64,000 nucleotides of DNA from Bacteroidales bacterium (GCA_023133485.1 JAGLWK010000168.1:687-64686); one strand, 5' to 3'. Counted from the first letter of the stretch, positions 552-61,516 are shown. Notes: generated from the letters alone by a model not told the origin. Numbers and translations are program-made.

Positions 552-602
552 AGAAAACTCCTATATTGTCATTTCGACTGAAAGGAGAAATCTCATAACA
601 CA
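552..602. repeat. Half copy of the GTCATTTCGA...GAGAAATCTCAT palindromic repeat, the same family as 40347-40425
   Basis: aaaactcctatattgtcatttcgactgaaaggagaaatctcataaca matches the reverse complement of 40385-40437 almost base for base. Confidence 0.7.
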
Positions 603-675
603 ATGTATATCAATTGAATGAAATTTACTTTCAATGAGGGCTTCGCCGTTCTTACTTCCTGCCTACCGAACAGGA

Positions 676-804
676 CAATATCAATAAGATAAGGTTTAAT
701 AATTTAATAGATTCCTGCTTTCGCAGGAATGACAGGCAGAAATGCCTATTTACAGTTCCTGTCATTCCGCACTTGATGCGGAATCTATTAACTTATTGAC
801 ATTG
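676..804. mobile_element. MITE-like element, TIR family CAATGTCAATAAGTTAA, copy 1 (left TIR slightly degenerate)
   Basis: Left end is caatatcaataagataa (676-692) and right end is ttaacttattgacattg (788-804). The interior carries two hairpins, attcctgctttcgcaggaat (711-730) and attccgcacttgatgcggaat (764-784). It is collinear with 61115-61245, 21187-21317 and, inverted, 2575-2702. Confidence 0.65.
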
Positions 805-984
805 ACTGGACAGGCAAGTGTGCACAATAACGTACTTTATGAACAAACACTAAATTAATATTACAAATAATTACTATTAAAACAAACTTAACATTAGCTT
901 AAATTTTAATTAACAGGTTTAGCTCATATATGTTTTTTCTTTGTATCAAAATAAAAAATCATTAATTAACCTAAATTAAAAAAA

Positions 985-2530: not shown

Positions 2531-2819
2531 CGTCATTGCGAAAAGGAACAACGAAACCTGCCTGACGGTAGGCAAATGTCAATAAGTTAACAGATTCCGC
2601 ATCAAGTGCGGAATAACAGAAGCTATGAAAAAGCGCTTCTGCCTGTCATTCCTGCGAAAGCAGGAATCTATTAATTATTTAAACCTTAACTTATTGACAT
2701 TGGACGGTAGGCAGACAATCTCTTGATTTACAGATTACTCCTTTCAGTCATGAGAACTTTTCTCATGACCAACGGGAATAAAAGTTGCTTCACTTTGTTC
2801 GCAATGACGAATAATAATA
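2531..2819. mobile_element. Palindromic element with CGTCATTGCGA / TCGCAATGACG termini, carrying a nested MITE insertion
   Basis: The termini are cgtcattgcga (2531-2541) and tcgcaatgacg (2809-2819). With 2575-2713 removed, the sequence is collinear with the reverse complement of 30947-31073 (cgtcattgcga..ggaac.acgaa.cctgcctgacggtaggca / g.caatct...agattactcctttcagtcatgaga...aaagttgcttcact..gttcgcaatgacg). Confidence 0.65.
2575..2702. mobile_element. MITE-like element, TIR family CAATGTCAATAAGTTAA, copy 2 (inverted orientation, nested)
   Basis: The ends are aatgtcaataagttaa (2575-2590) and ttaacttattgacattg (2686-2702). An identical 11 bp direct repeat, gacggtaggca, flanks it at 2564-2574 and 2703-2713. 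The same target palindrome is uninterrupted at 31028-31047. Confidence 0.7.
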
Positions 2820-7131: not shown

Positions 7132-7518
7132 TTACATAAACTTTTCCATTTCTTCGATAAAATTACTAACCTTTTTAATTAATGGACTTACAAATTCTTC
7201 ATCGTAATCATATAAGTCCCCATAATCTCCTTTATGACGATAATCAAATAGTTTTGAAAATAGCTTACCCTTTTCTTTGTCTATCTTTCCTGTTTTAACA
7301 AAATGAAGCCCAAATTGAGTTCTTGCTCCATCATGGGATTGAGTTTCAATATCATGTTTTAGCAGCAATGCAATTACTGAATAAAAACATGAATAATATA
7401 ATCTATTTACAACAGTATTCCACTTTCCTTTTTCTGCTAAAATTAAAGCTTCTTCAAATGATTCTTTGGCTCTATGAAATCTGTATTTTATATAATCATC
7501 TCGATTTTCTATAATCAT
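7132..7518 (-). CDS. HEPN domain protein, the toxin partner of the MNT-HEPN pair
   Basis: 128 aa all-helical protein with ...FSKLFDYRHKGDYGDLYDYD, the R-x-x-x-D-Y region typical of PF05168-type HEPN. A 4 bp ATGA overlap joins it to the upstream nucleotidyltransferase gene. Confidence 0.8.
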   Translation of the reverse strand: MIIENRDDYIKYRFHRAKESFEEALILAEKGKWNTVVNRLYYSCFYSVIALLLKHDIETQSHDGARTQFGLHFVKTGKIDKEKGKLFSKLFDYRHKGDYGDLYDYDEEFVSPLIKKVSNFIEEMEKFM

Positions 7519-7829
7519 AATTTGATACCCTCCTTAATAACATTTTTATAAAGTGGGGAATAAATCAAAACACTATTCCAATATGCCTTTGAATAAATAA
7601 ATGTTGAAATAACCTGACCTGCTTCTAGCTCAATATCATAAAGTTCATCTCTGAATTTATCTTCAATGTCATTAGTAACTTTACTTTCATCTATCAAAAT
7701 CAAAATATCCCAATCGGAATCTGTTCTATAATCTCCCCGTGCCCTAGAACCAAATAAATAAGCCTCTGCATAAGGGTCATTATTGTAAATACTTTCTGAA
7801 ATTTTATCCTGTAAAAATTTTTGCTTCAT
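7515..7829 (-). CDS. Minimal nucleotidyltransferase (MNT), the antitoxin partner of the HEPN protein
   Basis: AYLFGSRARGDYRTDSDWDILILID is the G-S-x(n)-D-x-D polymerase-beta-type nucleotidyltransferase signature. It is translationally coupled to the HEPN gene. Confidence 0.85.
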   Translation of the reverse strand: MKQKFLQDKISESIYNNDPYAEAYLFGSRARGDYRTDSDWDILILIDESKVTNDIEDKFRDELYDIELEAGQVISTFIYSKAYWNSVLIYSPLYKNVIKEGIKL

Positions 7830-8486: not shown

Positions 8487-8870
8487 TAATTAGTGCCTTG
8501 AGTTTAAAATGCCTAAAGTACTTAAAGTTTCTTGAGTTTTAGTTTCATACTAATAGAAATATAAATAGCAATGATTTCGTTCGCTTTAGTTATAATTAAC
8601 TTAATATTTTTGGATGTACGACAACTTTCCCTTTTAGTGGCATTTTGTGTTTTTGTGTTTTGGTGGCAAGAGTTATTTAGCCACAAAGACACCAAAGCAC
8701 CAAAACCACACCAAATTAAAAGTACAAGAAAATCATTTTTTTAACAAAGAGTGAAATTTGTTGTACACCCATATTTTTTGCATCAATCTGGTTAATTAAC
8801 TTTAGGCACTCATAACTTCAGTTCACTTTTAATGCTGAGCATAGCCGAAGTATAAGTACTAAATTAGTAT
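8487..8870. repeat. Large imperfect nested palindrome filling an intergenic region
   Basis: Outer arms are gtgccttgag..gcctaaagtacttaaag (about 8492-8527) against ctttaggcactc...gtataagtac (about 8801-8859). Middle arms are ggatgtacgacaa (8611-8623) against ttgttgtacaccc (8758-8770). The centre is gtgttttggtggc..gccacaaagacaccaaagcaccaaaaccacac (about 8655-8710). The outer-arm motif recurs around 61057-61100 and 61420-61478. Confidence 0.6.
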
Positions 8871-16181: not shown

Positions 16182-18029
16182 ATGAAAACACATTTCAAAA
16201 CCTCGCTTATCAGATTTGTAAAATTTAATCTGATTTTATCATTTTTAATATTTAATTATATTAATTCTTATTCACAAGAACATTTTGACCCAAAAGTTAG
16301 AGCAAAATATATTTTTGATGTTTCAAAATATGTTAAATGGCCTAATATTTCTGATATTGATACTTTTACGATTGGTGTTCTAAATGATTCTTCATTAGTT
16401 AAAGAATTAAATTTATTAACTAATGATAAACTTACACCTGATGAAAAACCTATAAAAATCATTCTGTTTAATGATATAGAACAGATTACAAAAACTCAGA
16501 TAATATTCGACAGTAAACAAAATGAAAATAATATTGATAGTATTTTTAACAAAATTAAAGGAAATAATACATTACTTATTACTGAAAATCAAGAATTTAA
16601 TAAATCAATGTTGAATTTCATTATGGTTAATAATTTATGCAGGTTTGAATTAAATAAAAGAAAAATTGACGAGGAAAATCTTATTATACCTCAATTAATG
16701 ATTGCACAGGCAGTTAAAACCAAAGAAGACTGGGAAAAACTTTATATAAAAACCGATTATATGTTGCAAAAAGAAAAGGAAGTTGTAAGAACCCAAAAAA
16801 TTGAAATCGAAGAACAAAAAGAACAAATTACCGAACAAAATATTAAAATACAGGAACAATTAAAAAATATAAAAATCCAGCAGAAAAAAATATTTGCCCA
16901 GAAAAAAGAATTAAAATTTCTTATTGATGACATAAAAATAAAACAGGATGAATTAAACAAAACTATAAAAACCATAAACGAGCAAAAACTTCAACTATTT
17001 GAGCAAAAAGCACAGGTTGAAAAACAAAAAGAAATACTTGATATTCAGAAATCTGAAATAGAAAATCAGGAAAATGAAATAAATGAACAAAAGAAAGACC
17101 TGAACAAACTTTTAGCTGAACTTAAAATGCAAAGAGTAATATTATTCCTATTTATTATTTTGTTTTTTGTTATCTCTGGTTTAGGATATGTTAGCTACAG
17201 GGCATATAAAATCAAGAAAGAAGCAAATATTATTCTGCATGAAAAAAATGTTGAAATTAGTCGGCAAAAACAGGAAATATTGGATAGTATTAATTATGCC
17301 AGTAGAATTCAGGCTGCTGTACTCCCACCGGAAGAATTTTTAACTAAAATTTTACCCGAAAATTTCTTCATTCTTAATAAACCACGTGATGTAGTTAGCG
17401 GCGACTATTACTGGATGGCATTAAAAGATGATAAAATTGTAATTGCTGTTGCCGATTGCACAGGACATGGTGTGCCGGGAGCTTTTATGAGCATGCTCGG
17501 TATAAGTTTTATGAACGAAATTATTAAAAAAGATGATGTAATAAATGCTGATGAAATATTAAATTTACTCAGAGATAATGTTATTAAGTCTTTACACCAG
17601 ACAGGTGAATCCGGCGAAAGCAAGGACGGAATGGACATCGCATTATGTGTTCTCGATCTTGATAAAAATATTTTACAATATTCCGGTGCATATAATCCAC
17701 TTTATTTGATCAGAAATAAGGAACTTCTTCAATTCAAGGCAGATAAAATGCCAATCGGGATTCATATTCATAAAGAAAGACCTTTCACAAATCATGTAAT
17801 TGATATTCAAAAAGATGATTCTATTTATATCTTTTCGGACGGTTATGTTGACCAGTTTGGCGGAGAAAAAAATTCTAAGTTTAAAATAAAACCATTTAAA
17901 CAATTATTGATTGATATTCAGGATAAAACTATGAACGAACAAAAAGAAATTCTAAATAAAACCATAGAAAAATGGAAAGGCTCATACGACCAGATTGATG
18001 ATATCCTTGTTATGGGAATTAAAATCTAA
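16182..18029 (+). CDS. Membrane receptor PP2C phosphatase: YfiR-like (DUF4154) periplasmic domain, coiled coil, TM helix and SpoIIE domain
   Basis: The N-terminus KVRAKYIFDVSKYVKWPN...FTIGVLNDSSLVKELN...IKIILFNDIEQI..TQIIFDS fits DUF4154/YfiR. A Q/K/E-rich coiled coil and the TM helix VILFLFIILFFVISGLGYVSY follow. The SpoIIE motifs are ILDSINYASRIQAAVLP, VSGDYYW, VADCTGHGVPGAFMSMLG, KDGMDIALC, IFSDGYVDQFGG and QIDDILVMGIKI. Confidence 0.8.
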   Translation: MKTHFKTSLIRFVKFNLILSFLIFNYINSYSQEHFDPKVRAKYIFDVSKYVKWPNISDIDTFTIGVLNDSSLVKELNLLTNDKLTPDEKPIKIILFNDIEQITKTQIIFDSKQNENNIDSIFNKIKGNNTLLITENQEFNKSMLNFIMVNNLCRFELNKRKIDEENLIIPQLMIAQAVKTKEDWEKLYIKTDYMLQKEKEVVRTQKIEIEEQKEQITEQNIKIQEQLKNIKIQQKKIFAQKKELKFLIDDIKIKQDELNKTIKTINEQKLQLFEQKAQVEKQKEILDIQKSEIENQENEINEQKKDLNKLLAELKMQRVILFLFIILFFVISGLGYVSYRAYKIKKEANIILHEKNVEISRQKQEILDSINYASRIQAAVLPPEEFLTKILPENFFILNKPRDVVSGDYYWMALKDDKIVIAVADCTGHGVPGAFMSMLGISFMNEIIKKDDVINADEILNLLRDNVIKSLHQTGESGESKDGMDIALCVLDLDKNILQYSGAYNPLYLIRNKELLQFKADKMPIGIHIHKERPFTNHVIDIQKDDSIYIFSDGYVDQFGGEKNSKFKIKPFKQLLIDIQDKTMNEQKEILNKTIEKWKGSYDQIDDILVMGIKI

Positions 18030-21186: not shown

Positions 21187-21317
21187 ATAATTTAATAGAT
21201 TACTCCCTTCGGTCATGAGAAAAATTCCTGCTTTCGCAGGAATGACAGGCAGAAGTGTCTTTTTACAGTTCCTGTCATTCCGCACTTGATGCGGAATCTA
21301 TTAACTTATTGACATTG
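21187..21317. mobile_element. MITE-like element, TIR family CAATGTCAATAAGTTAA, copy 3 (left end degenerate, with a small internal insertion)
   Basis: The right TIR ttaacttattgacattg (21301-21317) is intact. Both internal hairpins are present. About 22 extra bp (actcccttcggtcatgagaaaa) are inserted after taatttaatagatt. It explains the spurious ORF 21097-21285 (..VIPAKAGIF..). Confidence 0.6.
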
Positions 21318-30946: not shown

Positions 30947-31073
30947 CGTCATTGCGAACGTAGTGAAGCAACTTTTCTCATGACTGAAAGGAGTAATCTT
31001 GTTATCAATGTATTGAATATCAGATTGCCTGCCTACCGTCAGGCAGGCTTCGTCGTTCCTCCTCGCAATGACG
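30947..31073. mobile_element. Palindromic element with CGTCATTGCGA / TCGCAATGACG termini; the 'empty' reference copy
   Basis: The termini are cgtcattgcga (30947-30957) and tcgcaatgacg (31063-31073). It contains the intact palindrome cctgcctaccgtcaggcagg (31028-31047), which is interrupted by a MITE in the copy at 2531-2819. Confidence 0.65.
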
Positions 31074-31846: not shown

Positions 31847-31854
31847 TTCTATTA

Positions 31855-31966
31855 TTGTTTTTTGTTTGTTGTTTGTTGTTTGTTGTTTGTTGTTTGTTGT
31901 TTGTTGTTTGTCGTTTGCTGGCTACTGTCTACTGCCTACTGATGACTGCTGACTGCCTACTGTTAT
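31855..31966. repeat. Sixteen consecutive 7 bp units: (TTGTTTG)x7-8, then CTGNCTA/CTGNTGA variants
   Basis: ttgtttt, then ttgtttg x7 (31862-31910), then tcgtttg ctggcta ctgtcta ctgccta ctgatga ctgctga ctgccta ctgttat. It fills nearly the whole gap between the GWxTD stop (31972) and the rlmB GTG start (31846). Confidence 0.85.
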
Positions 31967-34448: not shown

Positions 34449-35302
34449 TTATGTTGTTTTTAATTCGTAAATCTTAAACCAATAGAAAAATACCTCAGGA
34501 TTAGATTTTTTTAGTTTGTTTAACTTATTGTTCAAAGGCTCATTTATTTGCCAATCTTTCATTTGTAAAGGGTTATTGTATTTTTCAATTTTAGTTGTAA
34601 TATTTTCTAATAAGGTTACAAGATAAGCTATTTTTGAAGCTTGAGCAATTGCTTTTTCAATATGATAACTTTCAGAGAAAATATAGGCTCGTATTCTTTG
34701 TATGCCTAACTGTAATTCATCAAAATTTCCTTTTCCGTCCATTCCTCTACTTGCAATACAAAGTGAAGTTTGGTAAATATCTTCTCACCCAAAATATCTT
34801 CTAAGCAAGGAATATTTACCAATAATGGTTTGTCATTCATTGGCACAAATGCAGATTGTATTGGTAATTGAATGATTTTTTGATAGTTTGCTTTTTCAAA
34901 TAATATGTCGAGCAATATATAATCTTCTGTTTTATTTGATTTGTGAATAGGTGTATAGAAGAATTTGTAATACTCTTTTTTTATAATGGAGTTTGTACTT
35001 CTGTGTTGTAATTCTTTTCGTATAAACTCTTGTTCTGTTGTTACTGTATTTAATATGTAGTCAAGATTATTGTTTTCTTTTGGTAAAATAATATCAATGT
35101 CAATTGACAATCTTTTTGTTGAATTAAAATGTAACATCAAAGCTGTTCCGCCCTTAAACACAAAAGGCAGTTTTTGTTTTACAAGACCTTCTAGTAAGAG
35201 CAAAGCACGAATAACCTTTTCTACAAGAATTTTATCCACATTTTGATTTTCCTTAGAAACCTTGTTAATCCATTCGATTGTTATTTCTTTTTGACTTATC
35301 AT
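34449..35302 (-). pseudogene. AbiEii/DUF1814-type nucleotidyltransferase toxin gene, split by a frameshift
   Basis: The N-terminal ORF (35302-34706) has LPFVFKGGTALMLHFNSTKRLSIDIDIIL, a nucleotidyltransferase GG...DxD motif. The reading frame changes near 34770-34790 (after EDILGEKI), and the C-terminal part continues in ORF 34742-34449. The two ORFs overlap by 37 nt. Confidence 0.6.
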
Positions 35303-35327
35303 GTTCTATAAATTGGCAATAAATTAA

Positions 35328-36065
35328 TTAGTTGCCGTAAATTTGTTTTATATAGTTTCTTATTTCTTCTTTTTTTCCTCTTCTATTCGCATAACGTAGT
35401 AATCTACTTTCGTTAATAGAATATTTCATAAAAGCTTCTTTATAAATGGTTTTCATTTCATTACCTTGATATGCTGAAAATATAACTTCATTACAAAATA
35501 TATCAACCAATATTTTTTCTAAAGTAGCAATATTTAGATTTTGTATATTTTGTGTAGGAGCTTCTGTAATTAGTGATTTTACAATTATTACATTGTTATT
35601 TTCGGTTATGTATCTTTCAAAAACTTCTTTTGTTGGCTCCAAAAAGACAGTCTGTTTTTTTTCTTTTAAATAAATGAAGATAGCTTGTGTAGCTTCTTTC
35701 TCTATTTCAACTATTAAAAAGAATTGATTGGTTTGATGTATTGAGAATTCGTTTAAAATAGAAGTGTTCCAGACACATAAGTCTAAATAAGGAAATTCTT
35801 TTTTTATTTTTTTGTTTATGTATTTTAATTCTGAAGTAATTTCTGGTATAAAGTAATTCATTTTACCTAAAGAAAATTTTCCTTTGCCAATTCTTTTAAA
35901 TATTCCCTTTTTTACAAAATTAAATATTCGCCAATTGATAGTTGTTTGACTTATGTTTGGTTCAATGGTTTTAAAAAAATTACCAATATCCTCAGTTTTA
36001 AAGTTTTCTTTGTCTTTAAAGAAAGTTTTTAATTTTTGAATATGTAATTTGTCTTTAATGATAAT
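35328..36065 (-). CDS. AbiEi-like antitoxin/transcriptional regulator; the wHTH N-terminus is encoded upstream of the first ATG
   Basis: The ORF track starts at 35861, but the frame stays open to 36068. The extra 68 codons encode ..FKTEDIGNFFKTIEPNISQTTINWRIFNFVKKGIFKRIGKGKFSLGK, a typical AbiEi_4 winged helix. There is no ATG, GTG or TTG in that stretch. The only candidates are ATT (36065), ATC (36062) and ATT (36059). Confidence 0.5.
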   Translation of the reverse strand: MIIKDKLHIQKLKTFFKDKENFKTEDIGNFFKTIEPNISQTTINWRIFNFVKKGIFKRIGKGKFSLGKMNYFIPEITSELKYINKKIKKEFPYLDLCVWNTSILNEFSIHQTNQFFLIVEIEKEATQAIFIYLKEKKQTVFLEPTKEVFERYITENNNVIIVKSLITEAPTQNIQNLNIATLEKILVDIFCNEVIFSAYQGNEMKTIYKEAFMKYSINESRLLRYANRRGKKEEIRNYIKQIYGN

Positions 36066-40276: not shown

Positions 40277-40346
40277 AAGATAATATTAAATTTTTTGTTT
40301 CTTATGTTGTGTCTATAAAAAAAACTTTGAAATTTATAATTATGCT

Positions 40347-40425
40347 GTCATTTCGAACGAAGTGAGAAATCTCATTTAATTGATATCCATTCTGTTATGA
40401 GATTTCTCCTTTCAGTCGAAATGAC
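40347..40425. repeat. Palindromic repeat element with two inverted GTCATTTCGA...GAGAAATCTCAT arms
   Basis: gtcatttcgaacgaagtgagaaatctcat (40347-40375) and atgagatttctcctttcagtcgaaatgac (40397-40425). A half copy lies at 552-602. Confidence 0.7.
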
Positions 40426-40619
40426 AATATTAGGAGTTTTCTTACGAACACTAAGTAATGATTGTTTAAAAATAAATCATTTTGTTATTGTCTAAATATA
40501 ATCATTTTCTCAAATAATATCTAAAATCTGCTTTTTATAAATTATATACTTAAAATGAAATAAAAATTATTATATTACTTTCAATTTATATTTTAACAAT
40601 TTAACTAAATTTTTCACAC

Positions 40620-42749: not shown

Positions 42750-43057
42750 AGTACAGAATTAGAATGAAACAGTGCTCAACACAAGCTATGCACAATAAGG
42801 GCAATGTGCTAAATTTGAAATGATTACATAAGAAATAAACACCGCCAAATCTTCGATATTGGCGTTTAAAATGAAAAACATAAGGTAAAATTAAAAATTT
42901 GGCTATGTGCGTAACGGAAAGTTTTATACTTTTAATCCCATACTGTGCCTAACCAAAACGTTGTATTTTATACCAAAACAAATATATGTTTAATAACATT
43001 CACTATTATAGTGAACTTTTTTGCATTATAATTTACCTTTGTTAAAGATATAATTTA

Positions 43058-43378
43058 ATGATAATCGAGTTTGAAAAGGAATACTTAGAACAATTGTACT
43101 CAGAGGGGAAAGCAAAAGGGAAAAAGTATCGCTTTCAACCAACAGTAATAAAACAATATAAAAACACGATTGACAAATTGAGAACTGCTAAACGGATAGA
43201 AGATTTATTCTTACTTAAAAGTCTGAATTATGAAAAATTAATAGGGAGCAAAAAAGGATTAGAATCAGTTCGGGTAAATCAACAATATCGTATAGAATTT
43301 AGGAGTAAACAAGAAAGTAAAGAACCAAACATTGTTACTATTTGTTCAATAATTGAATTAAGTAAACATTACGATTGA
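43058..43378 (+). CDS. higB: HigB-type (plasmid-killer/RelE superfamily) toxin
   Basis: The 106 aa sequence ...YRFQPTVIKQYKNTIDKLRTAKRIEDLFLLKSLNYEKLIGSKKGLESVRVNQQYRIEFR fits the PF05015 pattern. The gene overlaps the downstream HTH gene. Confidence 0.75.
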   Translation: MIIEFEKEYLEQLYSEGKAKGKKYRFQPTVIKQYKNTIDKLRTAKRIEDLFLLKSLNYEKLIGSKKGLESVRVNQQYRIEFRSKQESKEPNIVTICSIIELSKHYD

Positions 43379-44490
43379 TAGGAGAAAATAATATGTCTAA
43401 TAATAACATAACACCGTTTGAAGCAACTCATCCTGGCATATTGCTACAAGATGAGTTGAAAGCTCGTAATATAAAACAAAGGGAATTGGCATACGAATTA
43501 GGTGTTTTGCCAACTTTCTTAAATGAAATTATTAAAGGAAAAAGGTCAATTACAGCAGATTTTGCAGTCTTATTAGAAAAAGTACTTGAGATTCCTGCAG
43601 ATTATTGGTTGAGATTTCAAACTCAACATGATATTGATAAAGCACGAATCAAAGAAAAAAATGTACGCAAAATTGAATTAATTGAAATTTGGAATATTAT
43701 TAAAGAATATGTACCTGTTAAATCTTTTAAAAAACTTGGTTATTTACATAGCTCTTCAGAAATAGAAACGAATATTAAAACCATAATGAAAATTTACGAT
43801 ACTCGTAATATTAAAGGTTTAATCAATGTTTTTGGGACCCGCAAAAAGTTATTGTTTTATCGTAAATCAAAAAAACTAAACCTTGATAAAGTTAATATGA
43901 TAGGATGGAATATATTAGCTGAGTACGAAGCAAAACAAATTAATATTTCAAAATTTAAGAAAGAAAATCTTAATAATTTAAAAAAAGAACTACAAATAAT
44001 TTTTTTTAAAAATCAGAATGTTAAAGTACGTACGAAAGAAAAACTGGCAGAATATGGAATAAAATTATTATATCTTCAAAAATTTGATAAAACACCAATA
44101 GATGGTTATTCTTTTTGGAGTGATAAAAATCCTGCGATTGCATTAACATTAAGGCATAAGAGAATTGACAACTTTGCATTTACAATTTTTCACGAAATAG
44201 GCCATATTGAATTGCACATAGAATCACAAAAAGAAAGAAAGTTTATTGACTTGTACGGTAGTAAAGTTGAGAATGAGTTAGAAAGTCAAGCAGACAAATA
44301 TGCACAGGAAAGTCTTATATCCGAGGAACAATGGAATGATTTAGTAAATAATTATATTCCTCCAAATGACAACAAAATAAGAGATTTTGGAGAAAAACAC
44401 AAAATTAATCCTGCAATTATTCTCGGTAGAATATGTTGGGAAAAGAACGATTATACAATAAGGTCAAATATCGACAAATCTGTGAATTAG
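43375..44490 (+). CDS. higA: HigA-type XRE-HTH antitoxin fused to an ImmA/IrrE (M78) zinc-metallopeptidase domain
   Basis: The N-terminus is HPGILLQDELKARNIKQRELAYELGVLPTFLNEIIKGKRSITADFAVLLEKVLEIPADYWLRFQ (HigA HTH). The C-terminal part has FTIFHEIGHIELH (HEXXH) plus ..ESQADKYAQESL. The start is probably the ATG at 43393, not the TTG at 43375. Confidence 0.75.
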   Translation: MIGENNMSNNNITPFEATHPGILLQDELKARNIKQRELAYELGVLPTFLNEIIKGKRSITADFAVLLEKVLEIPADYWLRFQTQHDIDKARIKEKNVRKIELIEIWNIIKEYVPVKSFKKLGYLHSSSEIETNIKTIMKIYDTRNIKGLINVFGTRKKLLFYRKSKKLNLDKVNMIGWNILAEYEAKQINISKFKKENLNNLKKELQIIFFKNQNVKVRTKEKLAEYGIKLLYLQKFDKTPIDGYSFWSDKNPAIALTLRHKRIDNFAFTIFHEIGHIELHIESQKERKFIDLYGSKVENELESQADKYAQESLISEEQWNDLVNNYIPPNDNKIRDFGEKHKINPAIILGRICWEKNDYTIRSNIDKSVN

Positions 44491-46535: not shown

Positions 46536-48647
46536 ATGAAAAAACAAATTGCTAAATATTTTTTTTCTTATGTCTTTATTCTTATGTTCTGCTGCTCTTA
46601 TGCCAATACTCAGACAATTATCGACAGTCTTGAAAATATATTGAAATTTGCTACAAAAAATGAAAAAACAGAAATTCTAAATAAGCTTTCATTCGAATAT
46701 TCTTCTATATCATTCAAAAAATCTTTTGATTATGGAAATGAAGCATTAGAACTTGCAAAAAAAACAGGGAATAAATTAGAACATGGAAATGCATTGTATA
46801 ATCTCGGTGATGCTTATTATTATCAAAGTAATTATAATAAGGCTTTAAAATATTATCAAAAATCTTTATTAATATTTCAGGAAACAGATAATAAGGAGAA
46901 AATTGCTATTTTACTTAATAGTATTGGACTCATTAATTTTTATTTAGGAAAATATGACGAAGCAATAAAATATTTTAATAAATCATTAAAAATAAATGAA
47001 GAAATTAATAATAAACAAGGAATAGCAATGTGTCTGCAAAATATTGCAATGGTTTATGTGGATTGGAAAAACTATGAAAAAGCATTAGAATATTATAAAG
47101 AAGCATTAGAAATAAATTATGAATTAGATAAAAAGAGCAGAATAGCTGCTTTGCTTCAAAATATTGGAATTATTTATACAAAATATGATAATTATGATAA
47201 AACAATAGAATATTATCAAAAATCGTATGAAATATTCGAGAAAATAGACGATAAACAAGGAATTGCTTGTGTATTAAATAATATTGGAGAAGTTTATAAA
47301 GCATGGAATAAAAATGAAATAGCCCTGAATTACTTTCAAAAATCTTTAGCTTTATTTGAAGAATTAGGTTTTAAATATGGGATAACTGCAAATTTTTATA
47401 ATATTGGGGAAATTTATCTTGGTTGCAGAAAATATAAACTGGCTCTTGAATATTTTGATAAAAGCCTTAATACTGCAAAATCAATTCATTTAAAAGAATA
47501 TATTTTTGATAATTATAATATTTTCTCAGAAACTTATTTTGCAATGGGAAACTACAAAAAAGCATTAGAATACTATAAAAAATATACTACTTTGAAAGAT
47601 TCAGTTTTTTCAGAAGAAACACATAAACAAATAATTGAAATTCAAACCAAATACGAAACCGATAAAAAGAAAAAAGAAATAGAAATACTTAACAAGGAAA
47701 AAGAACTGCACAAAGTAAAAATTGCCCGACAAAATATTATTATATATGCAGTAATTGCCGGATTGTTTTTACTATCAATATTAGCATTACTGATTTATAA
47801 CAGATACAGATACAAACAAAAAGCTAATAAATTATTAACGAGACAAAATAATGAAATTAAATCGCAGAGAGATAAAATAGCAGTACAACAAAAAAATATA
47901 ACTGATAGTATTCAATATGCAAGTAGAATTCAAAATGCTTTATTACCGGAAGATGTTTATATAAAAGAAGTTATTCCTGAGCATTTTATTTTGAATAAAC
48001 CAAAGGATATTGTAAGTGGCGATTTTTACTGGTTAAAACAAATAAAAAATATGCTAATAATTACTGTAGCCGATTGTACAGGACACGGAGTACCGGGCGC
48101 ATTTATGAGTATGCTTGGTGTTTCATTTCTTAATGAAATTGTAAAAGACAAAAATATTATCAGTGCCAGTCAAGCTCTAAATCGGTTAAATGAAAGTGTG
48201 AAAAAGGCACTACACCAAACCGGCAAAGATGATGAAGCAAGAGACGGAATGGATATTGCATTATGTGTAATTAACAAAGATACTTTAGAATTAGAATTTT
48301 CAGGAGCTTATAATCCTGTTTATATTGTTAGGAATAAAGAATTAATACAATTAAAAGGCGATAAAAGACCAATTGGAATACATTTAAAACGTGATATTGT
48401 TTTTACCGATAAACAATTACAATTACAAAAAGGAGATTTAATATACATCTTTTCAGACGGATATATTGACCAATTTGGTGGTGAAAAGGGTACTAAGTTC
48501 AAAGCTACCCCTTTCAAAAAATTATTAGTCAATATTTATGATAAAACAATGGATGAACAAAAAGAAATCCTGAACAATACAATAGAAGAATGGAAAGGAA
48601 ATTACGAACAAATTGACGATATTTTAATAATGGGTATAAAAATCTGA
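46536..48647 (+). CDS. Receptor PP2C phosphatase A: signal/anchor, TPR repeats, TM helix and SpoIIE domain
   Basis: About 8 TPR units (..ALYNLGDAYYYQSNYNKALKYYQKSL.., ..CLQNIAMVYVDWKNYEKALEYYKEAL..). The TM helix is IIIYAVIAGLFLLSILALLIY. SpoIIE motifs are ITDSIQYASRIQNALLP, VSGDFYW, VADCTGHGVPGAFMSMLG, RDGMDIALC, IFSDGYIDQFGG and QIDDILIMGIKI. Confidence 0.85.
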   Translation: MKKQIAKYFFSYVFILMFCCSYANTQTIIDSLENILKFATKNEKTEILNKLSFEYSSISFKKSFDYGNEALELAKKTGNKLEHGNALYNLGDAYYYQSNYNKALKYYQKSLLIFQETDNKEKIAILLNSIGLINFYLGKYDEAIKYFNKSLKINEEINNKQGIAMCLQNIAMVYVDWKNYEKALEYYKEALEINYELDKKSRIAALLQNIGIIYTKYDNYDKTIEYYQKSYEIFEKIDDKQGIACVLNNIGEVYKAWNKNEIALNYFQKSLALFEELGFKYGITANFYNIGEIYLGCRKYKLALEYFDKSLNTAKSIHLKEYIFDNYNIFSETYFAMGNYKKALEYYKKYTTLKDSVFSEETHKQIIEIQTKYETDKKKKEIEILNKEKELHKVKIARQNIIIYAVIAGLFLLSILALLIYNRYRYKQKANKLLTRQNNEIKSQRDKIAVQQKNITDSIQYASRIQNALLPEDVYIKEVIPEHFILNKPKDIVSGDFYWLKQIKNMLIITVADCTGHGVPGAFMSMLGVSFLNEIVKDKNIISASQALNRLNESVKKALHQTGKDDEARDGMDIALCVINKDTLELEFSGAYNPVYIVRNKELIQLKGDKRPIGIHLKRDIVFTDKQLQLQKGDLIYIFSDGYIDQFGGEKGTKFKATPFKKLLVNIYDKTMDEQKEILNNTIEEWKGNYEQIDDILIMGIKI

Positions 48648-48851
48648 AAAATCATAACTCAATAATTTGTTGATGTTATTAAAATTTTTAAAACTGAATG
48701 CAGAAATAATTTTATAATCCCTACTTTATCGGCAGACAGGTGTGGCATTCAATAATTTTATGATAAATCAAATTATATTCCTTGTTTTACTTCCTGAAAT
48801 ACTATATATTTATAAAAAGAAACAATATTTCAAAATTTATAATTTTTAAAA

Positions 48852-51206
48852 TTGAGTTACATAAAAGAAAATAATATTAGGTTCTTAGTTTTAGGAATGT
48901 TATTGTTATTTTACAACATTACATTAAGCCAATCCTATAAAGATTCATTACAAACACAATTAAAATCTGCAACTGATGAAAACAAAATAGAGATTCTTTT
49001 GGAATTATCTATAGAAACTGCTTCCGATTCCATGCCTGAAGCATTAAATTATGGCAAACAAGCTCTACAATTAGCTAATAATATTAAAAATGACAGCCTT
49101 ATTGCTAAATCTTATAATATAATAGGACATTGTTATTCAACAGAACATGATTCTACACATGCCATTGAATATTTTAATAAAGCAATTTCTATTGCTAAAG
49201 ATATTTCTAATAAAAAATTATTAGTATTGGCATTATTTAATAAAGCTAATTTGTTGAATAATCAAGGTTATTATTTAGAAGCTATGTCTGATTTTACTAA
49301 AGCACTGGAAATAGCTGAAAAAAACAAATATTACGAATTACTTTCAAAGATATACAACGAAATTGGTATTATCTATTATAACCAACAAAAATATGATTCT
49401 ACCTTATTTTATTTTAAAAAATCCCTTGCAATCGACAAACAAAATGATGACAAAATACAAATTGCTAAATCATATAATAATATTGGTGTGATATATAAAA
49501 ATATTGGAAAATATGATATTGCTATTCAAAACCAACTGAAAGCACTTAAGATAAGAGAGGAAATAAATGATAGTAATGGTATTGCTATGTCGTATAATAA
49601 TATTGGACAGGTATATTATTACTGGGATAAAAACGATAAATGTATTGAATATTTTAAAAAGGCACTTATTATTCAAACGGAATTAAAAAATAAAAAAGAA
49701 ATCGCAGGACTTAATAATAATATAGGAAGTGTTTATACTGAAATGAAAAATTACCATAAAGCTATTGAGTATTATATAAAAGCCTTGAAATATACCAGGT
49801 ATAATAATTTAAGACAAACTACGGCAGTCCTTTTGGGTAATATTGGTTTAGCTTATGCAGGTTTAAAAGAATTTAACCAATCTTTAAAATATCATTTTAA
49901 ATCACTAAGTCTTTGCAAACAGATTGGACATAAAAAAAGTGAGGTTTATTCGCTAAATAATATCGGAAATACATACAAAGAAATGAAACAATATAACAAA
50001 GCCCTTGAATATTATCAAAAAACAGTAGAAATTTCAAAAGAATTGAACCTGCAACAAAATCTTCTTGATAATTATAAAGCAAGCTATGAAATTTATAAAG
50101 AGATAAATAATTTTAAAAAAGCCTTTGATTATCATATACTTTATACCGAACTTAAAGATTCCATTTTTACACAACAAAGCAATGAACATATAATTGAAAT
50201 TCAAACCAAATACGAAACCGATAAAAAGAAAAAAGAAATAGAAATACTAAACAAAGAAAAAGAACTGCACAAAGTAAAAATTGCCCGGCAGAATATTATT
50301 ATATATGCAGTAATTGCTGTACTGGTTTTACTATCAATATTAGCTTCACTGATTTATAACAGATACAGATATAAACAAAAAGCTAATAAATTATTAACCC
50401 GCCAAAACAATGAAATTAAATCGCAGAGAGATAAAATAGCAGTACAACAAAAAAATATAACCGACAGTATTCAATATGCAAGTAGAATTCAAAATGCTTT
50501 GTTACCGGAAGATGTTTATTTAAAAGAAGTTATTCCTGAACATTTTATTTTAAATAAACCAAAAGATATTGTAAGTGGCGATTTTTACTGGTTAAAACAG
50601 ATAAAAAACAAGCTAATAATTGCTGTTGCTGATTGCACAGGACACGGAGTACCGGGAGCATTTATGAGTATGTTGGGTGTTTCATTTCTCAACGAAATTG
50701 TAAAAGACAAAAATATTATCAGTGCCAGTAAAGCTCTAAACCGTTTAAATGAAAGTGTGAAAAAGGCACTACACCAAACCGGCAAAGAAGATGAAGCCAG
50801 AGATGGGATGGATATTGCATTATGTGTAATTAACAAAGATACTTTAGAATTAGAATTTTCAGGAGCTTATAATCCTGTTTATATTGTTAGGAATAAAGAA
50901 TTAATACAATTAAAAGGTGATAAAAGACCTATTGGAATACATATAAAACGTAATATTGTTTTTACCGATAAACAATTACAATTACAAAAAGGAGATTTAA
51001 TATACATCTTTTCAGACGGATATTGTGATCAAATAGGTGGTGCTAAAAATACTAAATTCAAACCTGGCCCATTCAGAGAATTACTAGTCAGTATTCAGGA
51101 TAAAACAATGAATGAACAAAAAGAAATCCTTGATAAAACCATAGAAAAATGGAAAGGAGATTACGAACAAATTGACGATATTTTAATAATGGGTATAAAA
51201 ATCTGA
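48852..51206 (+). CDS. Receptor PP2C phosphatase B: signal peptide, TPR repeats, TM helix and SpoIIE domain
   Basis: About 9-10 TPR units. The TM plus SpoIIE part is nearly identical to gene A. A TTG start at 48852 gives a proper signal peptide (MSYIKENNIRFLVLGMLLLFYNITLSQS). The first ATG (48897) would leave no n-region. Confidence 0.85.
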   Translation: MSYIKENNIRFLVLGMLLLFYNITLSQSYKDSLQTQLKSATDENKIEILLELSIETASDSMPEALNYGKQALQLANNIKNDSLIAKSYNIIGHCYSTEHDSTHAIEYFNKAISIAKDISNKKLLVLALFNKANLLNNQGYYLEAMSDFTKALEIAEKNKYYELLSKIYNEIGIIYYNQQKYDSTLFYFKKSLAIDKQNDDKIQIAKSYNNIGVIYKNIGKYDIAIQNQLKALKIREEINDSNGIAMSYNNIGQVYYYWDKNDKCIEYFKKALIIQTELKNKKEIAGLNNNIGSVYTEMKNYHKAIEYYIKALKYTRYNNLRQTTAVLLGNIGLAYAGLKEFNQSLKYHFKSLSLCKQIGHKKSEVYSLNNIGNTYKEMKQYNKALEYYQKTVEISKELNLQQNLLDNYKASYEIYKEINNFKKAFDYHILYTELKDSIFTQQSNEHIIEIQTKYETDKKKKEIEILNKEKELHKVKIARQNIIIYAVIAVLVLLSILASLIYNRYRYKQKANKLLTRQNNEIKSQRDKIAVQQKNITDSIQYASRIQNALLPEDVYLKEVIPEHFILNKPKDIVSGDFYWLKQIKNKLIIAVADCTGHGVPGAFMSMLGVSFLNEIVKDKNIISASKALNRLNESVKKALHQTGKEDEARDGMDIALCVINKDTLELEFSGAYNPVYIVRNKELIQLKGDKRPIGIHIKRNIVFTDKQLQLQKGDLIYIFSDGYCDQIGGAKNTKFKPGPFRELLVSIQDKTMNEQKEILDKTIEKWKGDYEQIDDILIMGIKI

Positions 51207-51225
51207 AAAATCATAACTCTATAAT

Positions 51226-54200
51226 TTGTTGAAGTTATTAAAATTTTTAAAATTGAGTTACATAAAAGAAAATAATATTAGATTCTTAGTTTTAGGAATG
51301 TTATTATTATTTTACAACATTGTATTAAGCCAATCTGATGATGTAATATTTAATCATATAACTACCGAAAACGGAATTTCTCATAATAATGTTTATGCCA
51401 TTTGTCAGGATAATAATGGATTCATGTGGTTTGGCACCCAAAATGGGCTTAATATATATAATGGTAAAGATTTTTTCTACTATTTTCATGATATTTTAGA
51501 TTCTAATTCAATTTCATCAAATAATTTTGGTAAAATTCATGTTGATAGGTCCGGCAAAATCTGGTTTGGTACATATGGCGGAGGATTAGATATGTACAAT
51601 CCTCAAAATAATACAATAAAACATTTTAAAAACGAACAAGGTAATAGTAAAAGTCTCTGCAATAATTTTATCTTATGTATTTTTGAAGACAAACAAGGTG
51701 TATTATGGTTTGGAACTGCCAACGGAGGTTTTTGTAAATTTGATCCTATTAATGAATGTTTTATAAATTATAGTTATCAGTTAAATAATCAATTTAGTTT
51801 AAGTAATAATAATGTAAGGGCAATTTGCGAAGACAATAAGGGTTATTTATGGATAGGAACAAGCGATGGATTAAACAGAATGAATAAGGAAACCGGAAGA
51901 TTTAAAAAATATTTTCCTGATAAAAGCAATTCTAATAGTATAAATTCAAAACAAATACAGTCTTTATGTTTTGTTGAACCAAACAAAATATGGATAGGAA
52001 CCAGAAATAATGGTATTAATATTCTTAATATTGAAACAGAACAATTTATTTCATATAAAAATGATCCGGATAATCCGAAAAGTATTAGTGATAATCGTGT
52101 TGATAATATTTTCAAAGATTCTTACGGTACTATATGGATAGGAACTTATAATGGGGGATTAAACAAATTTGACAATAAAACAAAAACATTTATTAATTAC
52201 AAACATTATTCAAATAACACTTTTAGTATAAGTCATAACAGAATAGAATTTATTTTTGAAGACAAGTCAAATAATCTTTGGATTGCTACACGTGGAGGTG
52301 GAATTAATAAATTGGATTTAAAACCCCGAAAATTTACAAATTACTACTATGAACAAAACAATCCAAATTCTATTCCTTATCCTATCATAACTTCAATTGC
52401 TTCTGAGAATAAAGATGTCCTCTGGATTGCTACTGACGGTGGAGGACTTTGTCGCTTTGACAAAAACAAAAATATATTTTTTAATCTTAAACATGAAGAT
52501 GAAAATAAAAATTCTCTAAGTAACAACAGAGTTAGAGCTGTAGTTGTTGATAAATCAGGAATAATATGGATTGGAACTTATCGGGGAGGACTTGATAAAT
52601 TAATATGGAAAAATAATACCAATTATAAATATATTCATTATAAGTATAAAGCTAATGACACGAACTCACTTAATAGTAATCAAGTTAATGTTGTTTATAT
52701 TGATAATAATGAAGATCTATGGATAGGTACAATTAACGGAATATGCAAATTAGTATATTCTAAAGATTCATCAAAAATAAGCTTTAAACGATATACACAT
52801 AATTCTAAAGATCCATTGAGTTTAAGCCACCATTATGTTACCTCAATATTTCATGACCATCTTGGACAACTGTGGATTGGAACATTCGACGGGCTTAATA
52901 AATTTAATCCCGAAACAGAAAAATTTCAACATTATAAAAATATTCCGGGTGATTCAAATAGCATTAACAGTAATCATATTTTAACGATTTTTGAAGACCA
53001 TGCCGGATTTCTTTGGATTGGCACTGAGGATAACGGTATAAATAAATTCAATCAAAAAACACAATCATTCACAGGATATAAAGATGAAAATATTCGCTCG
53101 AACAATATGATTACGGGCATTCTCGAAGATGAAAAGAATAATTTATGGATAAGTAAAGCAAATGGAATCTCAAAATTCAATCCTGTTACACAAAAATTCA
53201 AAAATTATGATGTTACCGATGGATTAGTTGGTAATGGCTACAATCGTAATGCCTGTTTAAAAACCGAAAGTGGAGAAATGTTTTTTGGAAGCATAGCAGG
53301 ATTAACAAGTTTTTTCCCTTCAAAAATTAAAGATAATCCTAATATACCTCCTGTTGTTCTTGTTGATTTTAAAATATTAAATAAATCAATATATAAACAT
53401 CAAAATTCATTTAATGTAAAATGTCCTTATAATATAAAACAAATTAAACTAAGTCATAAAGATTATGTGTTTTCATTTGAATTTGCTGCATTAGATTATA
53501 CAAAATTTGAAAAAAATCTATATGAATATAAAATGGAAGGGTTTGATGATAAATGGATTAATATTGGAAACCGAAGATTTGTTTCATATACAAATTTACC
53601 TCCCGGTAATTATATATTTAAAGTTAAAGCATCAAACAACGATAAGGTTTGGAACGAAAAAGGTTTGTCTGTTAACATACTTGTTAAGCCTCCTTTTTGG
53701 AAAACTAAAGGTTTTTATGCATTAGAAATTCTTTTTACTATATTTTTAGTGTATAGCATTATTATGTATAGAATAAGGAAGTTGCAAAGAGATAAAAAAA
53801 TACTCGAAGATAAAGTTACAGAACGTACTAAGGAAGTCGAATTACAAAAGGAAGAAATTATCAGACAAAGAGATGAAATAACCGATAGTATTTTTTATGC
53901 TAAACATATTCAAACTGCCGTTTCACCATCAAAAGAATTTATTGATAACATTCTTGATGATTATTTTATTTTAGATTTGGCTAAAGGAATTGTAAGTGGC
54001 GATTTCTACTGGATATCTGAAAATGATGAAAAAATAATTGTTGCTGTTGCCGATTGCACAGGTCATGGTGTACCAGGTGCTTTTATGAGTATGATGGGAA
54101 TATTATTTTTAAATAAAATTGTAAATGAAGAAAACATTATAAAACCAAACGAAATTCTTGATAGCTTAAAAAATAACGTTATTTCATCATTACATCAAAA

Positions 54201-54627
54201 TGGGAATACTAGAGAAACCAGCGATGGAATGGATATCTCGCTAATAACAATAGATAAACAAAACAATTTTCTTGAATATACTGGTGCTAATAATTCTATA
54301 TATTTAATCCGTAATAATGAATTTACTGAAATTTATCCCGATAAAATGCCTATTGGTATTTATCATGAAACAGATAAAAAGTTTTCATATCAGAAAATAG
54401 AAATACAATCCGGAGATATGATATATCTTTATACTGATGGTTATATTGATCAATTTGGTGGAGAAAAAGAAAAAAAATATATGTTCAACAAATTCAGAGA
54501 AATATTGTTAAGTATACATAACTATCCTTTAGAATATCAAAAAGAAAAATTAGAAACTGAACATAAAGAATGGAAAAAAAACAATGAACAAGTTGACGAT
54601 ATATTAATTATGGGAATAAAAATTTAG
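51226..54627 (+). CDS. Receptor PP2C phosphatase C: signal peptide, two-component-regulator beta-propeller repeats, Y_Y_Y domain, TM helix and SpoIIE domain
   Basis: Many Reg_prop units (..G.(I/L)W(I/F)GT..GL(N/D)..). The Y_Y_Y region is YEYKMEGFDDKWINIGNRRFVSYTNLPPGNYIFKVKASNNDKVW. The TM helix is ALEILFTIFLVYSIIMY, and the SpoIIE motifs follow. The start is probably the TTG at 51253, homologous to gene B's start. Confidence 0.85.
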   Translation: MLKLLKFLKLSYIKENNIRFLVLGMLLLFYNIVLSQSDDVIFNHITTENGISHNNVYAICQDNNGFMWFGTQNGLNIYNGKDFFYYFHDILDSNSISSNNFGKIHVDRSGKIWFGTYGGGLDMYNPQNNTIKHFKNEQGNSKSLCNNFILCIFEDKQGVLWFGTANGGFCKFDPINECFINYSYQLNNQFSLSNNNVRAICEDNKGYLWIGTSDGLNRMNKETGRFKKYFPDKSNSNSINSKQIQSLCFVEPNKIWIGTRNNGINILNIETEQFISYKNDPDNPKSISDNRVDNIFKDSYGTIWIGTYNGGLNKFDNKTKTFINYKHYSNNTFSISHNRIEFIFEDKSNNLWIATRGGGINKLDLKPRKFTNYYYEQNNPNSIPYPIITSIASENKDVLWIATDGGGLCRFDKNKNIFFNLKHEDENKNSLSNNRVRAVVVDKSGIIWIGTYRGGLDKLIWKNNTNYKYIHYKYKANDTNSLNSNQVNVVYIDNNEDLWIGTINGICKLVYSKDSSKISFKRYTHNSKDPLSLSHHYVTSIFHDHLGQLWIGTFDGLNKFNPETEKFQHYKNIPGDSNSINSNHILTIFEDHAGFLWIGTEDNGINKFNQKTQSFTGYKDENIRSNNMITGILEDEKNNLWISKANGISKFNPVTQKFKNYDVTDGLVGNGYNRNACLKTESGEMFFGSIAGLTSFFPSKIKDNPNIPPVVLVDFKILNKSIYKHQNSFNVKCPYNIKQIKLSHKDYVFSFEFAALDYTKFEKNLYEYKMEGFDDKWINIGNRRFVSYTNLPPGNYIFKVKASNNDKVWNEKGLSVNILVKPPFWKTKGFYALEILFTIFLVYSIIMYRIRKLQRDKKILEDKVTERTKEVELQKEEIIRQRDEITDSIFYAKHIQTAVSPSKEFIDNILDDYFILDLAKGIVSGDFYWISENDEKIIVAVADCTGHGVPGAFMSMMGILFLNKIVNEENIIKPNEILDSLKNNVISSLHQNGNTRETSDGMDISLITIDKQNNFLEYTGANNSIYLIRNNEFTEIYPDKMPIGIYHETDKKFSYQKIEIQSGDMIYLYTDGYIDQFGGEKEKKYMFNKFREILLSIHNYPLEYQKEKLETEHKEWKKNNEQVDDILIMGIKI

Positions 54628-54721
54628 TAAAATAATAAGGAAATCCCGATTCCAGCCTACCGGCAGGCAAGGTAGTAATAGTTAGTAAAACGAAGTTTTG
54701 CTTTACGTTTACTTATTCGGG

Positions 54722-54757
54722 GTTGACGATATATTAATTATGGGAATAAAAATATAA
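54722..54757 (+). pseudogene. Orphan 3' end of a SpoIIE phosphatase gene (VDDILIMGIKI-stop)
   Basis: gttgacgatatattaattatgggaataaaaat (54722-54753) is a perfect 32 bp copy of 54592-54623, the end of gene C. It continues ata-taa like the ends of genes D and E. No ORF body lies upstream. Confidence 0.7.
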
Positions 54758-54793
54758 TATTATAGATAAACTCTAAATAATTCATATTACTTA

Positions 54794-58651: not shown

Positions 58652-58658
58652 TATTGTT

Positions 58659-61052: not shown

Positions 61053-61114
61053 GTAATTAATAAGTACTTAAAGTGAACTAAAGTTTTGAGTGCCTAAACT
61101 GCCTACTAGCAGGC

Positions 61115-61245
61115 CAATGTCAATAAGTTAAGGTTTAAATAATTTAATAGATTCCTGCTTTCGCAGGAATGACATGTAAAAGTAACTTTTTAAAAGCTAT
61201 TGTCATTCCGCACTTGATGCGGAATCTGTTAACTTATTGACATTG
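61115..61245. mobile_element. MITE-like element, TIR family CAATGTCAATAAGTTAA, copy 4 (best preserved)
   Basis: Perfect 17 bp TIRs, caatgtcaataagttaa (61115-61131) and ttaacttattgacattg (61229-61245). The internal hairpins are attcctgctttcgcaggaat and attccgcacttgatgcggaat. The flanks contain GCAGGC on both sides, inside a ctgcct...aggcagg palindrome. Confidence 0.75.
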
Positions 61246-61516
61246 ACCGGCAGGCAGGAGTCATTTAATATGGATAATAAGTAACTAATCACAGTTTCTC
61301 TTTTGTAGTTTTACTATGGAGAAGGAGCAATATAACAGACTGTCTTGATTTTTCAAGGAAATACTTATAAAAAATATTAAAAACATGAGTAATTTCGTTA
61401 GCAATTAGTAAGAAATCGAAACTCTAAGTACTTTAGGCACTCTATAAAAACCAAGCTTTTATTTTGAGCCGAAGTATTAGGCACTGAGTAATTACAAATA
61501 TAGAAAAGTAATAATA

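Follow-up and report, generated by a model that had tools for sequence, protein, structure and literature searches.

The 128 bp insert that interrupts a short palindrome near the beginning of the 64,000-nucleotide stretch of Bacteroidales DNA analysed here (the window) is regarded as a discrete non-autonomous transposon (MITE). In support of this reading, the insert recurs with identical boundaries in several contexts unrelated to one another, has terminal inverted repeats, lacks coding sequence, is flanked by a duplication and has an intact counterpart of its insertion site in a paralogous locus; on the same grounds, the non-autonomous mobile element postulated in the original prediction is upheld. 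The element probably owes its mobility to an IS4-family DDE transposase that acts in trans and prefers REP-like palindromes.

The filled site (copy 2 of the MITE) can be read directly. Positions 2557–2574 have the sequence cctgcctGACGGTAGGCA, the insert (Table 1) starts with AATGTCAATAAGTTAA and ends with TTAACTTATTGACATTG, and its terminal inverted repeats comprise 16–17 bp (2574/2575–2590 and 2686–2702). The flanking direct repeat, GACGGTAGGCA, is exactly 11 bp long, since the neighboring outer bases differ between the two sides; its length becomes 10 bp if the first A is assigned to the terminal repeat, as a C that has mutated. Within the window, GACGGTAGGCA has three exact matches, i.e., both flanks and the reverse strand of 31030–31040; the chance expectation (at most one mismatch allowed) is about 0.12 matches.

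The last of these matches belongs to the empty site. The reverse complement of 31028–31047 reads cctgcctgacggtaggcagg, followed by caatc, and the removal of the insert together with one copy of the repeat from 2557–2720 yields a sequence identical to the empty site at 24 of 25 positions. The empty site represents a paralog (host element B), not an ortholog; the database contains no close relative for an orthologous comparison, the neighboring TonB receptor reaching 57% identity with its best homolog there. All sequence statements of the original prediction proved correct on direct reading, including the coordinates of the insert with its terminal inverted repeats and exact 11 bp repeat, and the uninterrupted site in the paralog at 30947–31073, where the intact palindrome is found on the reverse strand.

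Table 1. Copies of the MITE in the window, their flanking repeats, target palindromes and host elements (positions counted from the first nucleotide of the window).
Feature	Position	Strand	Remarks
MITE copy 1	676–804	+	129 bp; left terminal repeat with 2 mismatches
MITE copy 2 (the insert at the filled site)	2575–2702	−	128 bp; non-coding
MITE copy 3, one-ended	21187–21317	+	A-side terminal repeat and body 21224–21317 intact
MITE copy 4	61115–61245	+	131 bp; both 17 bp terminal repeats perfect
Left target duplication of copy 2	2564–2574		11 bp, GACGGTAGGCA
Right target duplication of copy 2	2703–2713		11 bp, GACGGTAGGCA, then gacaatc
Left imperfect direct repeat of copy 1	665–674		accgaacagg, directly after tgcct (660–664)
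Right imperfect direct repeat of copy 1	805–814		actggacagg; 8/10 match to left
Left imperfect direct repeat of copy 4	61105–61114		actagcaggc, directly after tgcct (61100–61104)
Right imperfect direct repeat of copy 4	61246–61255		accggcaggc, then agg; 8/10 match to left
Empty target, 20 bp palindrome	31028–31047		cctgcct-accgtc-aggcagg
Other unoccupied ctgcct/aggcag palindrome	54652–54671		3 mismatches; inside a different small element
Host element A, filled site	2531–2809	+	terminal repeats CGTCATTGCGA / TCGCAATGACG
Host element B, paralog of A, uninterrupted palindrome	30947–31073	−	127 bp; opposite orientation to A
Host element of copy 1, third, diverged family member	567–832	+	tgtcatttcga ... 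tgcacaataacg
Short host-family member without palindrome and MITE	40346–40426	−	tgtcatttcga ... ttcgaaatgaca

The three additional copies announced for the window are all real, one of them (copy 3) being one-ended, with its B-side (left) terminal repeat lost. Identity to copy 2 amounts to 88% for copy 1, 91% for copy 4 and 90% for the segment 21224–21317 of copy 3. Copy 2 is oriented opposite to copies 1, 3 and 4, i.e., with its A-side hairpin, ATTCCGCACTTGATGCGGAAT, on the left. Further copies are present in other metagenomic contigs, a complete one in L003 (AAFY01001728) and a one-ended one in L001, so the sample consists of six copies: four from the window (one of them one-ended) and two from contigs of other metagenomes.

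The consensus terminal inverted repeat of 17 bp, CAATGTCAATAAGTTAA, is matched seven times in the window vs. 1.4 matches expected, all seven at element ends. The B end is followed by AT-rich sequence and by the hairpin ATTCCTGC-TTTC-GCAGGAAT, the A end is accompanied by the hairpin ATTCCGCA-CTTGA-TGCGGAAT, and a variable centre separates the two hairpins. Folded as a single strand, the MITE forms a long terminal stem and two hairpins (z = −8.65). The element spans 128–131 bp without coding capacity, and no gene is called there in public assemblies; no Rfam family reached the gathering threshold anywhere in the window, and no tRNAs were found in it.

The copy from L003 (positions 387–609) is 223 bp long and bears extra hairpins after AGATT, and the loop of its A-side hairpin contains about 42 bp of inserted ctgcc/ggcag palindromes. 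Its A end lies between the two copies of an 18 bp near-repeat (GGACTGCCGTYAGGCAG), and a fragment of a group II intron maturase is situated about 70 bp downstream. Judging from the AAFY prefix, this contig presumably stems from a whale-fall-type metagenome. The 21 bp A-side hairpin is also found, as an exact match, in six IMG/VR viral-contig stretches (L027–L032) with 39–50% G+C. There, the hairpin reads GTCATTCCGCACTTGATGCGGAATC, is continued by CAG in five of seven occurrences and resides in apparent gene-flanking spacers, often beside similar hairpins (ctggattcctgccttcgcaggaatgac). This type of hairpin appears to be widespread beyond the source genome.

All copies of the MITE in the window are intergenic. 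The window matches scaffold_48 (124,763 bp) of ENA assembly ERZ23498665 from about 717 bp onwards, and parts of it recur on contigs of the MAG GCA_030631205.1. The window itself (28% G+C) harbors genes typical of Bacteroidota, e.g., those for a TonB-dependent receptor with a CarboxypepD_reg domain, for GldH and for an array of SpoIIE-type phosphatases, and encodes proteins with type IX secretion sorting domains as well. The SpoIIE/PP2C phosphatase paralogs number six, five in a tandem array (46536–61052) and one at 16182–18029; they feature TPR, PAS or Reg_prop/Y_Y_Y sensor parts, their C-terminal halves are 60–87% identical, and a second array of this kind is located on scaffold_1040. Small genes of the defence or toxin–antitoxin type occupy 7132–7829, 34706–35861 and 43046–44490. 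They include one pair of a HEPN and a nucleotidyltransferase gene and one pair of an AbiEii-type nucleotidyltransferase toxin gene and a DUF6577 gene, along with a 109 aa ORF upstream of a gene for an HTH/IrrE-type peptidase. A tract of TTGTTGTTTG-type repeats in a 14 bp register (31852–31928) lies between the genes for a SpoU methyltransferase and a GWxTD-domain protein.

Short similar flanks had been noted previously at copies 1 and 4; these are present, and they are better described as imperfect direct repeats of 10 bp. For window 10-mers at the same spacing, the probability of at least 8 of 10 matching positions is 0.0047 for each of the two copies. The flanks of the L003 copy, gtctatcgat and gactgccgtt, match at 6 of 10 positions. 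The repeats at the other copies differ in sequence from GACGGTAGGCA, so the case named earlier as one that would undo the claim, i.e., that GACGGTAGGCA is a part of every copy, does not hold. When the sequences between the palindrome arm and the terminal repeat are compared, they match better as direct than as inverted repeats (8/10 vs. 5/10 at copy 4, 6/10 vs. 2/10 at L003), which argues for duplication and against longer terminal repeats. In both of these copies, perfect terminal repeats adjoin imperfect flanking repeats. Simple ageing does not explain this combination well; the exchange of flanks by recombination between copies residing in similar palindromes would explain it. As for copies 1 and 4, their imperfect repeats may reflect either age or recombination between copies.

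In every one of the four complete copies, the duplication is immediately preceded by a TGCCT arm of a palindrome: tgcct|accgaacagg in copy 1, cctgcct|gacggtaggca in copy 2, tgcct|actagcaggc in copy 4 and tgcct|gtctatcgat in L003. In the one-ended copy from L001, aagcag appears exactly 10 bp past the intact end. The 64-kb window contains five palindromes of the ctgcct/aggcag type, three of them occupied. A feature that fits the preferred reading less neatly is that the duplication and the dyad of the palindrome do not share a centre. In a common orientation of the hosts, copy 2 has duplicated TGCCTACCGTC (left arm and loop) and copy 1 has duplicated ACCGAACAGG (loop and right arm). The two sites represent mirror positions, 5 bp apart, in a homologous palindrome of one host family. 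This offset indicates independent insertions as opposed to copies of a single composite, and such independent insertions at mirror positions constitute the strongest evidence of a real target preference. Overall, the preference for a palindromic target that had been claimed is supported, on a small sample (six copies in all), by the TGCCT adjacency in the three complete copies of the window and in L003.

The ends of the MITE point to a particular group of transposases. The IS4 subgroup of the IS4 family is characterized by ends of the form -AATR--------WTW---- and direct repeats of 10–13 bp (De Palmenaer et al. 2008, PMC2266710, Table 1), and some of its members display a striking target-arm specificity (PMC2266710). 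The end of the MITE, CAATGTCAATAAGTTAAGG, fits this signature at all seven constrained positions, with AATG at positions 2–5 and TTA at positions 14–16; the signature is encountered at 0.5% of window positions. The IS4 sequence of E. coli K-12 has the ends TAATGCCGATCAGTTAAGG and TAATGCCAGTCAGTTAAGC and a flanking repeat of 12 bp. The B end of the MITE is identical to TAATGCCGATCAGTTAAGG at 15 of 19 positions, a score reached in the window by two B-side MITE ends only (about 128,000 19-mers, both strands). The duplication of 10–11 bp lies within the range of the IS4 subgroup. Of the ten groups listed in PMC2266710, it is specifically the IS4 subgroup that the end signature and the repeat length fit. 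The element would thus be termed a MITE with IS4-subgroup ends, family membership not being claimable for an element that carries no transposase.

By analogy with IS4-family enzymes, the insertion may be pictured as follows. A transposase, presumably of the IS4 subgroup of the IS4 family and either encoded elsewhere in the genome or now lost, would bind both ends of the MITE and excise it. The element would then be joined to a target cut in a staggered manner about one helical turn apart, and the repair of the gaps would produce the duplication of 10–11 bp. The preferred targets would be short REP-like palindromes, CCTGCCT-N6-AGGCAGG, with one of the cuts made directly beside the TGCCT arm; since the site is palindromic, either arm could be used, giving two mirror positions 5 bp apart. 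The palindromes themselves reside in or beside another family of small inverted-repeat elements (those with CGTCATTGCGA ends), which makes the whole a nested repeat. Cut-and-paste chemistry is employed by IS10 and IS50, both elements of the IS4 family. It is likewise known for IS231A of the same family (PMC2266710), and the enzyme that mobilized the MITE may be expected to share it.

A transposase is not encoded in the window, in agreement with the original prediction: the 39 ORFs with 120 aa or more yielded no match to a transposase family, and none of the intergenic reading frames of at least 55 aa looked transposase-like when their translations were inspected by eye. Nor was a transposase among the genes called in a further 32 kb of the source genome. 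Scanning of genome and metagenome contig collections with the terminal 20–22-mer returned two true matches only, L001 and L003, and an autonomous element with the ends of the MITE was not found in the genome, metagenome, viral, plasmid and phage collections scanned, to which the source genome does not belong. The 17-mer had 13 matches in viral contigs, all chance-like and unaccompanied by any other part of the MITE; a search of plasmids and phages with the MITE gave nothing relevant, and when plasmids were searched by tblastn with the transposase of IS4, no Bacteroidota were among the organisms listed. Additional sequence of the same or sister genomes (the L033 extension, L036, L038 and L039) contained no further copies of the MITE, only host-family and other small elements. 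Literature searches with literal sequence strings retrieved primer matches only. Of the partners suggested at the outset, IS110/IS1111 and IS200/IS605 are a misfit, since the MITE has 17 bp terminal inverted repeats and a duplication of 10–11 bp, and its ends point to the IS4 family.

One candidate partner, of the IS1182 type, was considered in contig L002 and rejected, its full-length relatives (L011, L012) having unrelated ends. In this higher-GC, Firmicutes-like contig, two 17-mer terminal repeats (1147–1163 and 1832–1848) flank a 171 aa ORF in outward orientation, next to the remains of a degraded IS1182/ISNCY-like transposase, and weak NCBIfam matches (E = 0.003–0.014) occur beside the perfect terminal repeat.

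The host elements form a family of their own. Host A measures about 140 bp once the insert and one copy of the repeat are discounted. Its terminal sequence, CGTCATTGCGA, occurs in the window only at 2531, 2799 (−), 30947 and 31063 (−), and host B is its only full paralog. The host of copy 1 displays 96% identity over 109 bp to the element at L033:20672–20799 and is also related to 40346–40426 and to host B. Members of the family span 80–140 bp, with the ends GTCATT(G/T)CGA ... TCG(C/A)AATGAC and the common core ctgaaaggag.aatct. They have been recognized at 2531–2809, 30947–31073, 567–832, 40346–40426 (−), L033:20672–20799 (−) and L036:5586–5690; the ctgcct palindrome resides at varying internal positions in some of them and is absent from others. 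In the copy 1 host, as compared with its palindrome-free relatives, the palindrome and the MITE occur together, which counts against the preferred reading. A weak case of joint presence is offered by copy 4, for which a paralogous flank of 29 bp (8801–8829) lacks both. The palindrome itself may be mobile, or it may travel with the MITE.

Smaller units are found within these elements as well. A module of 22–25 bp, AGATTACTCC(Y)TTC(R)GTCATGAGAA, is present in host A (2732–2756) and host B (30975–30999, −) and recurs inside copy 3 (25 bp, 21197–21221) and L003 (about 507–529), each time directly after ATT. Its presence in hosts, copy 3 and L003 means that small hairpin modules move between families of elements.

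A different arrangement surrounds the second unoccupied palindrome of Table 1. A 98 bp element with a ctgcct-type palindrome inside (54624–54721) is bracketed by an exact direct repeat of 32 bp, whose two copies (54592–54623 and 54722–54753) equal the 3′ end of the SpoIIE-type gene at 51226–54627; the gene has kept its C-terminus and acquired a new stop codon. A like arrangement with another inner hairpin follows two paralogous genes on scaffold_1040 (L036:12380–12660 and L036:14920–15060). It could represent an old event inherited via tandem gene duplication, the remnant of a deleted paralog, or the work of an element that takes the end of the gene along or duplicates it.

Taken jointly, the nested repeats might be read as a hierarchy of mobile hairpins in which each level parasitizes the one below, a speculative and rather doubtful reading. 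Its lowest level would be the hosts with GTCATTGCGA ends, followed by the mobile 20 bp palindrome, the IS4-type MITE and, finally, the 22 bp modules and palindromes. As tentative parts of the same reading, the palindrome would land in or beside the hosts, the MITE would home to the palindrome, and the hairpins of the MITE would in turn take up modules and further palindromes, as in copy 3 and L003. If true, with an enzyme or mechanism for every level, nesting in this uncultured Bacteroidales lineage would be unusually deep. The depth of nesting and the shuffling of modules are the sole features that might repay a genome-wide study.

Four other explanations of the insert were weighed, and all of them rank below a MITE moved by an IS4-type enzyme. 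It is unlikely that the arms CCTGCCT and AGGCAGG are the outer ends of a larger mobile unit, so that the palindrome and the enclosed MITE move together and the solitary 20 bp palindrome is the minimal form, e.g., a REP-like element with its own enzyme. The copy 1 host, in which the palindrome and the MITE make up one extra block relative to 40346–40426 and L033:20672–20799, would agree with such a unit, and so would the different positions of the palindrome in host B and in the copy 1 host, the flank of copy 4 paralogous to 8801–8829 and the occupancy of three of the five window palindromes. At copy 2, however, the filled and the empty host both possess the palindrome and differ by 128 bp plus 11 bp; no duplication is visible outside the palindrome, and the better direct than inverted match of the sequences between arm and terminal repeat (copy 4, L003) also speaks against the larger unit. 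Moreover, the two readings are not mutually exclusive, as the palindrome can be both mobile and a target of the MITE. Another DDE family with long or variable duplications, i.e., IS1182, ISAs1 or the IS5/IS903 group, is quite an unlikely source of the mobilizing enzyme. IS1182 elements are listed with duplications of variable length, which would suit this family, and in L002 a perfect 17-mer lies about 160 bp from the degraded IS1182/ISNCY-like transposase fragment. Against it stand the unrelated ends of the full-length relatives of this fragment, the Firmicutes-like character of the contig, the outward orientation of its two 17-mers around an unrelated ORF, and the specificity of the end signature and repeat length for the IS4 subgroup among the ten groups of PMC2266710.

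If an IS110-type enzyme or a Xer- or integrase-like tyrosine recombinase had brought in the insert by site-specific recombination, the palindrome would be an arm-spacer-arm core site and the repeat the exchanged core. The geometry of CCTGCCT-N6-AGGCAGG (7 bp inverted arms, 6 bp spacer) and the high site selectivity of the insertion resemble such a system, which is nevertheless very improbable: the duplicated 11 bp correspond to the spacer plus five bases of one arm, not to the spacer or the whole core, the ends of the element are unlike the arms (gacattg vs. cctgcct, 0/7), the point of insertion is shifted by 5 bp between copies 1 and 2, and terminal inverted repeats like those of the MITE (17 bp) are missing from IS110 and IS200/IS605 elements. 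Finally, it is extremely improbable that no transposition took place and that the locus is a mosaic of hairpin modules, shuffled through replication slippage or template switching plus inter-repeat recombination, with the 11 bp repeat as a by-product. The module of hosts A and B inside copy 3 and L003, the extra palindromes in the A-side hairpin loop of L003 and the existence of one-ended copies are the kind of traces that such processes would leave. They do not account for a unit of 128–131 bp with two fixed boundaries that recurs in unrelated contexts and in other metagenomes, for boundaries that coincide with perfect terminal inverted repeats, or for a flanking repeat that starts precisely at either end of the element and is as long as expected of the family that these ends resemble.

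At the level of sequence, the locus cleanly documents a recent transposition in the AT-rich genome of an uncultured member of the Bacteroidales that is known from metagenome assemblies alone, and it links a MITE to the IS4 subgroup via its ends. It also suggests that the homing of the IS4 family to REP-like palindromes extends beyond Proteobacteria and to a non-autonomous element. Insertion next to TGCCT represents a testable target specificity. Nested repeats of this kind disrupt assemblies and give rise to spurious small ORFs; copy 3, e.g., reads ...VIPAKAGI... when translated.

Among known systems, IS4 of E. coli is an element of 1426 bp with its own transposase, whereas the MITE described here spans 128–131 bp, encodes nothing and resides in an uncultured Bacteroidales host. 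By description, the MITE resembles the mobile insertion cassettes that derive from IS231 in Bacillus cereus (MIC231), which are non-autonomous, have IS4-family ends, are moved in trans and generate duplications of about 10–12 bp; these cassettes belong to the IS231 subgroup with CAT ends, are larger and contain passenger genes. Insertion into REP palindromes exclusively is documented for ISRm22 of the IS4 family, and elements of four other IS families are specific to REP palindromes as well (Tobes and Pareja 2006, PMC1525189); IS1397, ISKpn1, ISPsy8, ISPpu9/10 and ISPa11 are named among the REP-targeting elements, and the imperfect direct repeats seen at such elements have been ascribed to recombination between copies (PMC1525189). 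The REP-targeting IS and the MITE are alike in their fixed position in a short repeated extragenic palindrome and in the imperfection of some repeats. The former are autonomous elements of Proteobacteria with repeats of 2–6 bp, inserted at or near the dyad axis, whereas the repeats of the MITE comprise 10–11 bp and start from the edge of one arm, and its palindrome is embedded in a small element.

The target itself, a short extragenic palindrome rich in GC, recalls REP, BIME and REPIN sequences (PMC3116915, PMC3333891) in having several diverged copies within an otherwise AT-rich genome, five of them in the window; it differs in that no RAYT (Y1 transposase) gene was seen here. Small modular non-autonomous inverted-repeat elements are also known in Bacteroidota from the MITEs of Porphyromonas gingivalis (PMC4596501). 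That paper deals with a minisatellite inside a MITE, not with insertion into palindromes, and the likeness is one of description only. Overall, measured against these systems, the finding is an ordinary, clean case of known bacterial mobile DNA, and the current understanding of its mechanism is unchanged.
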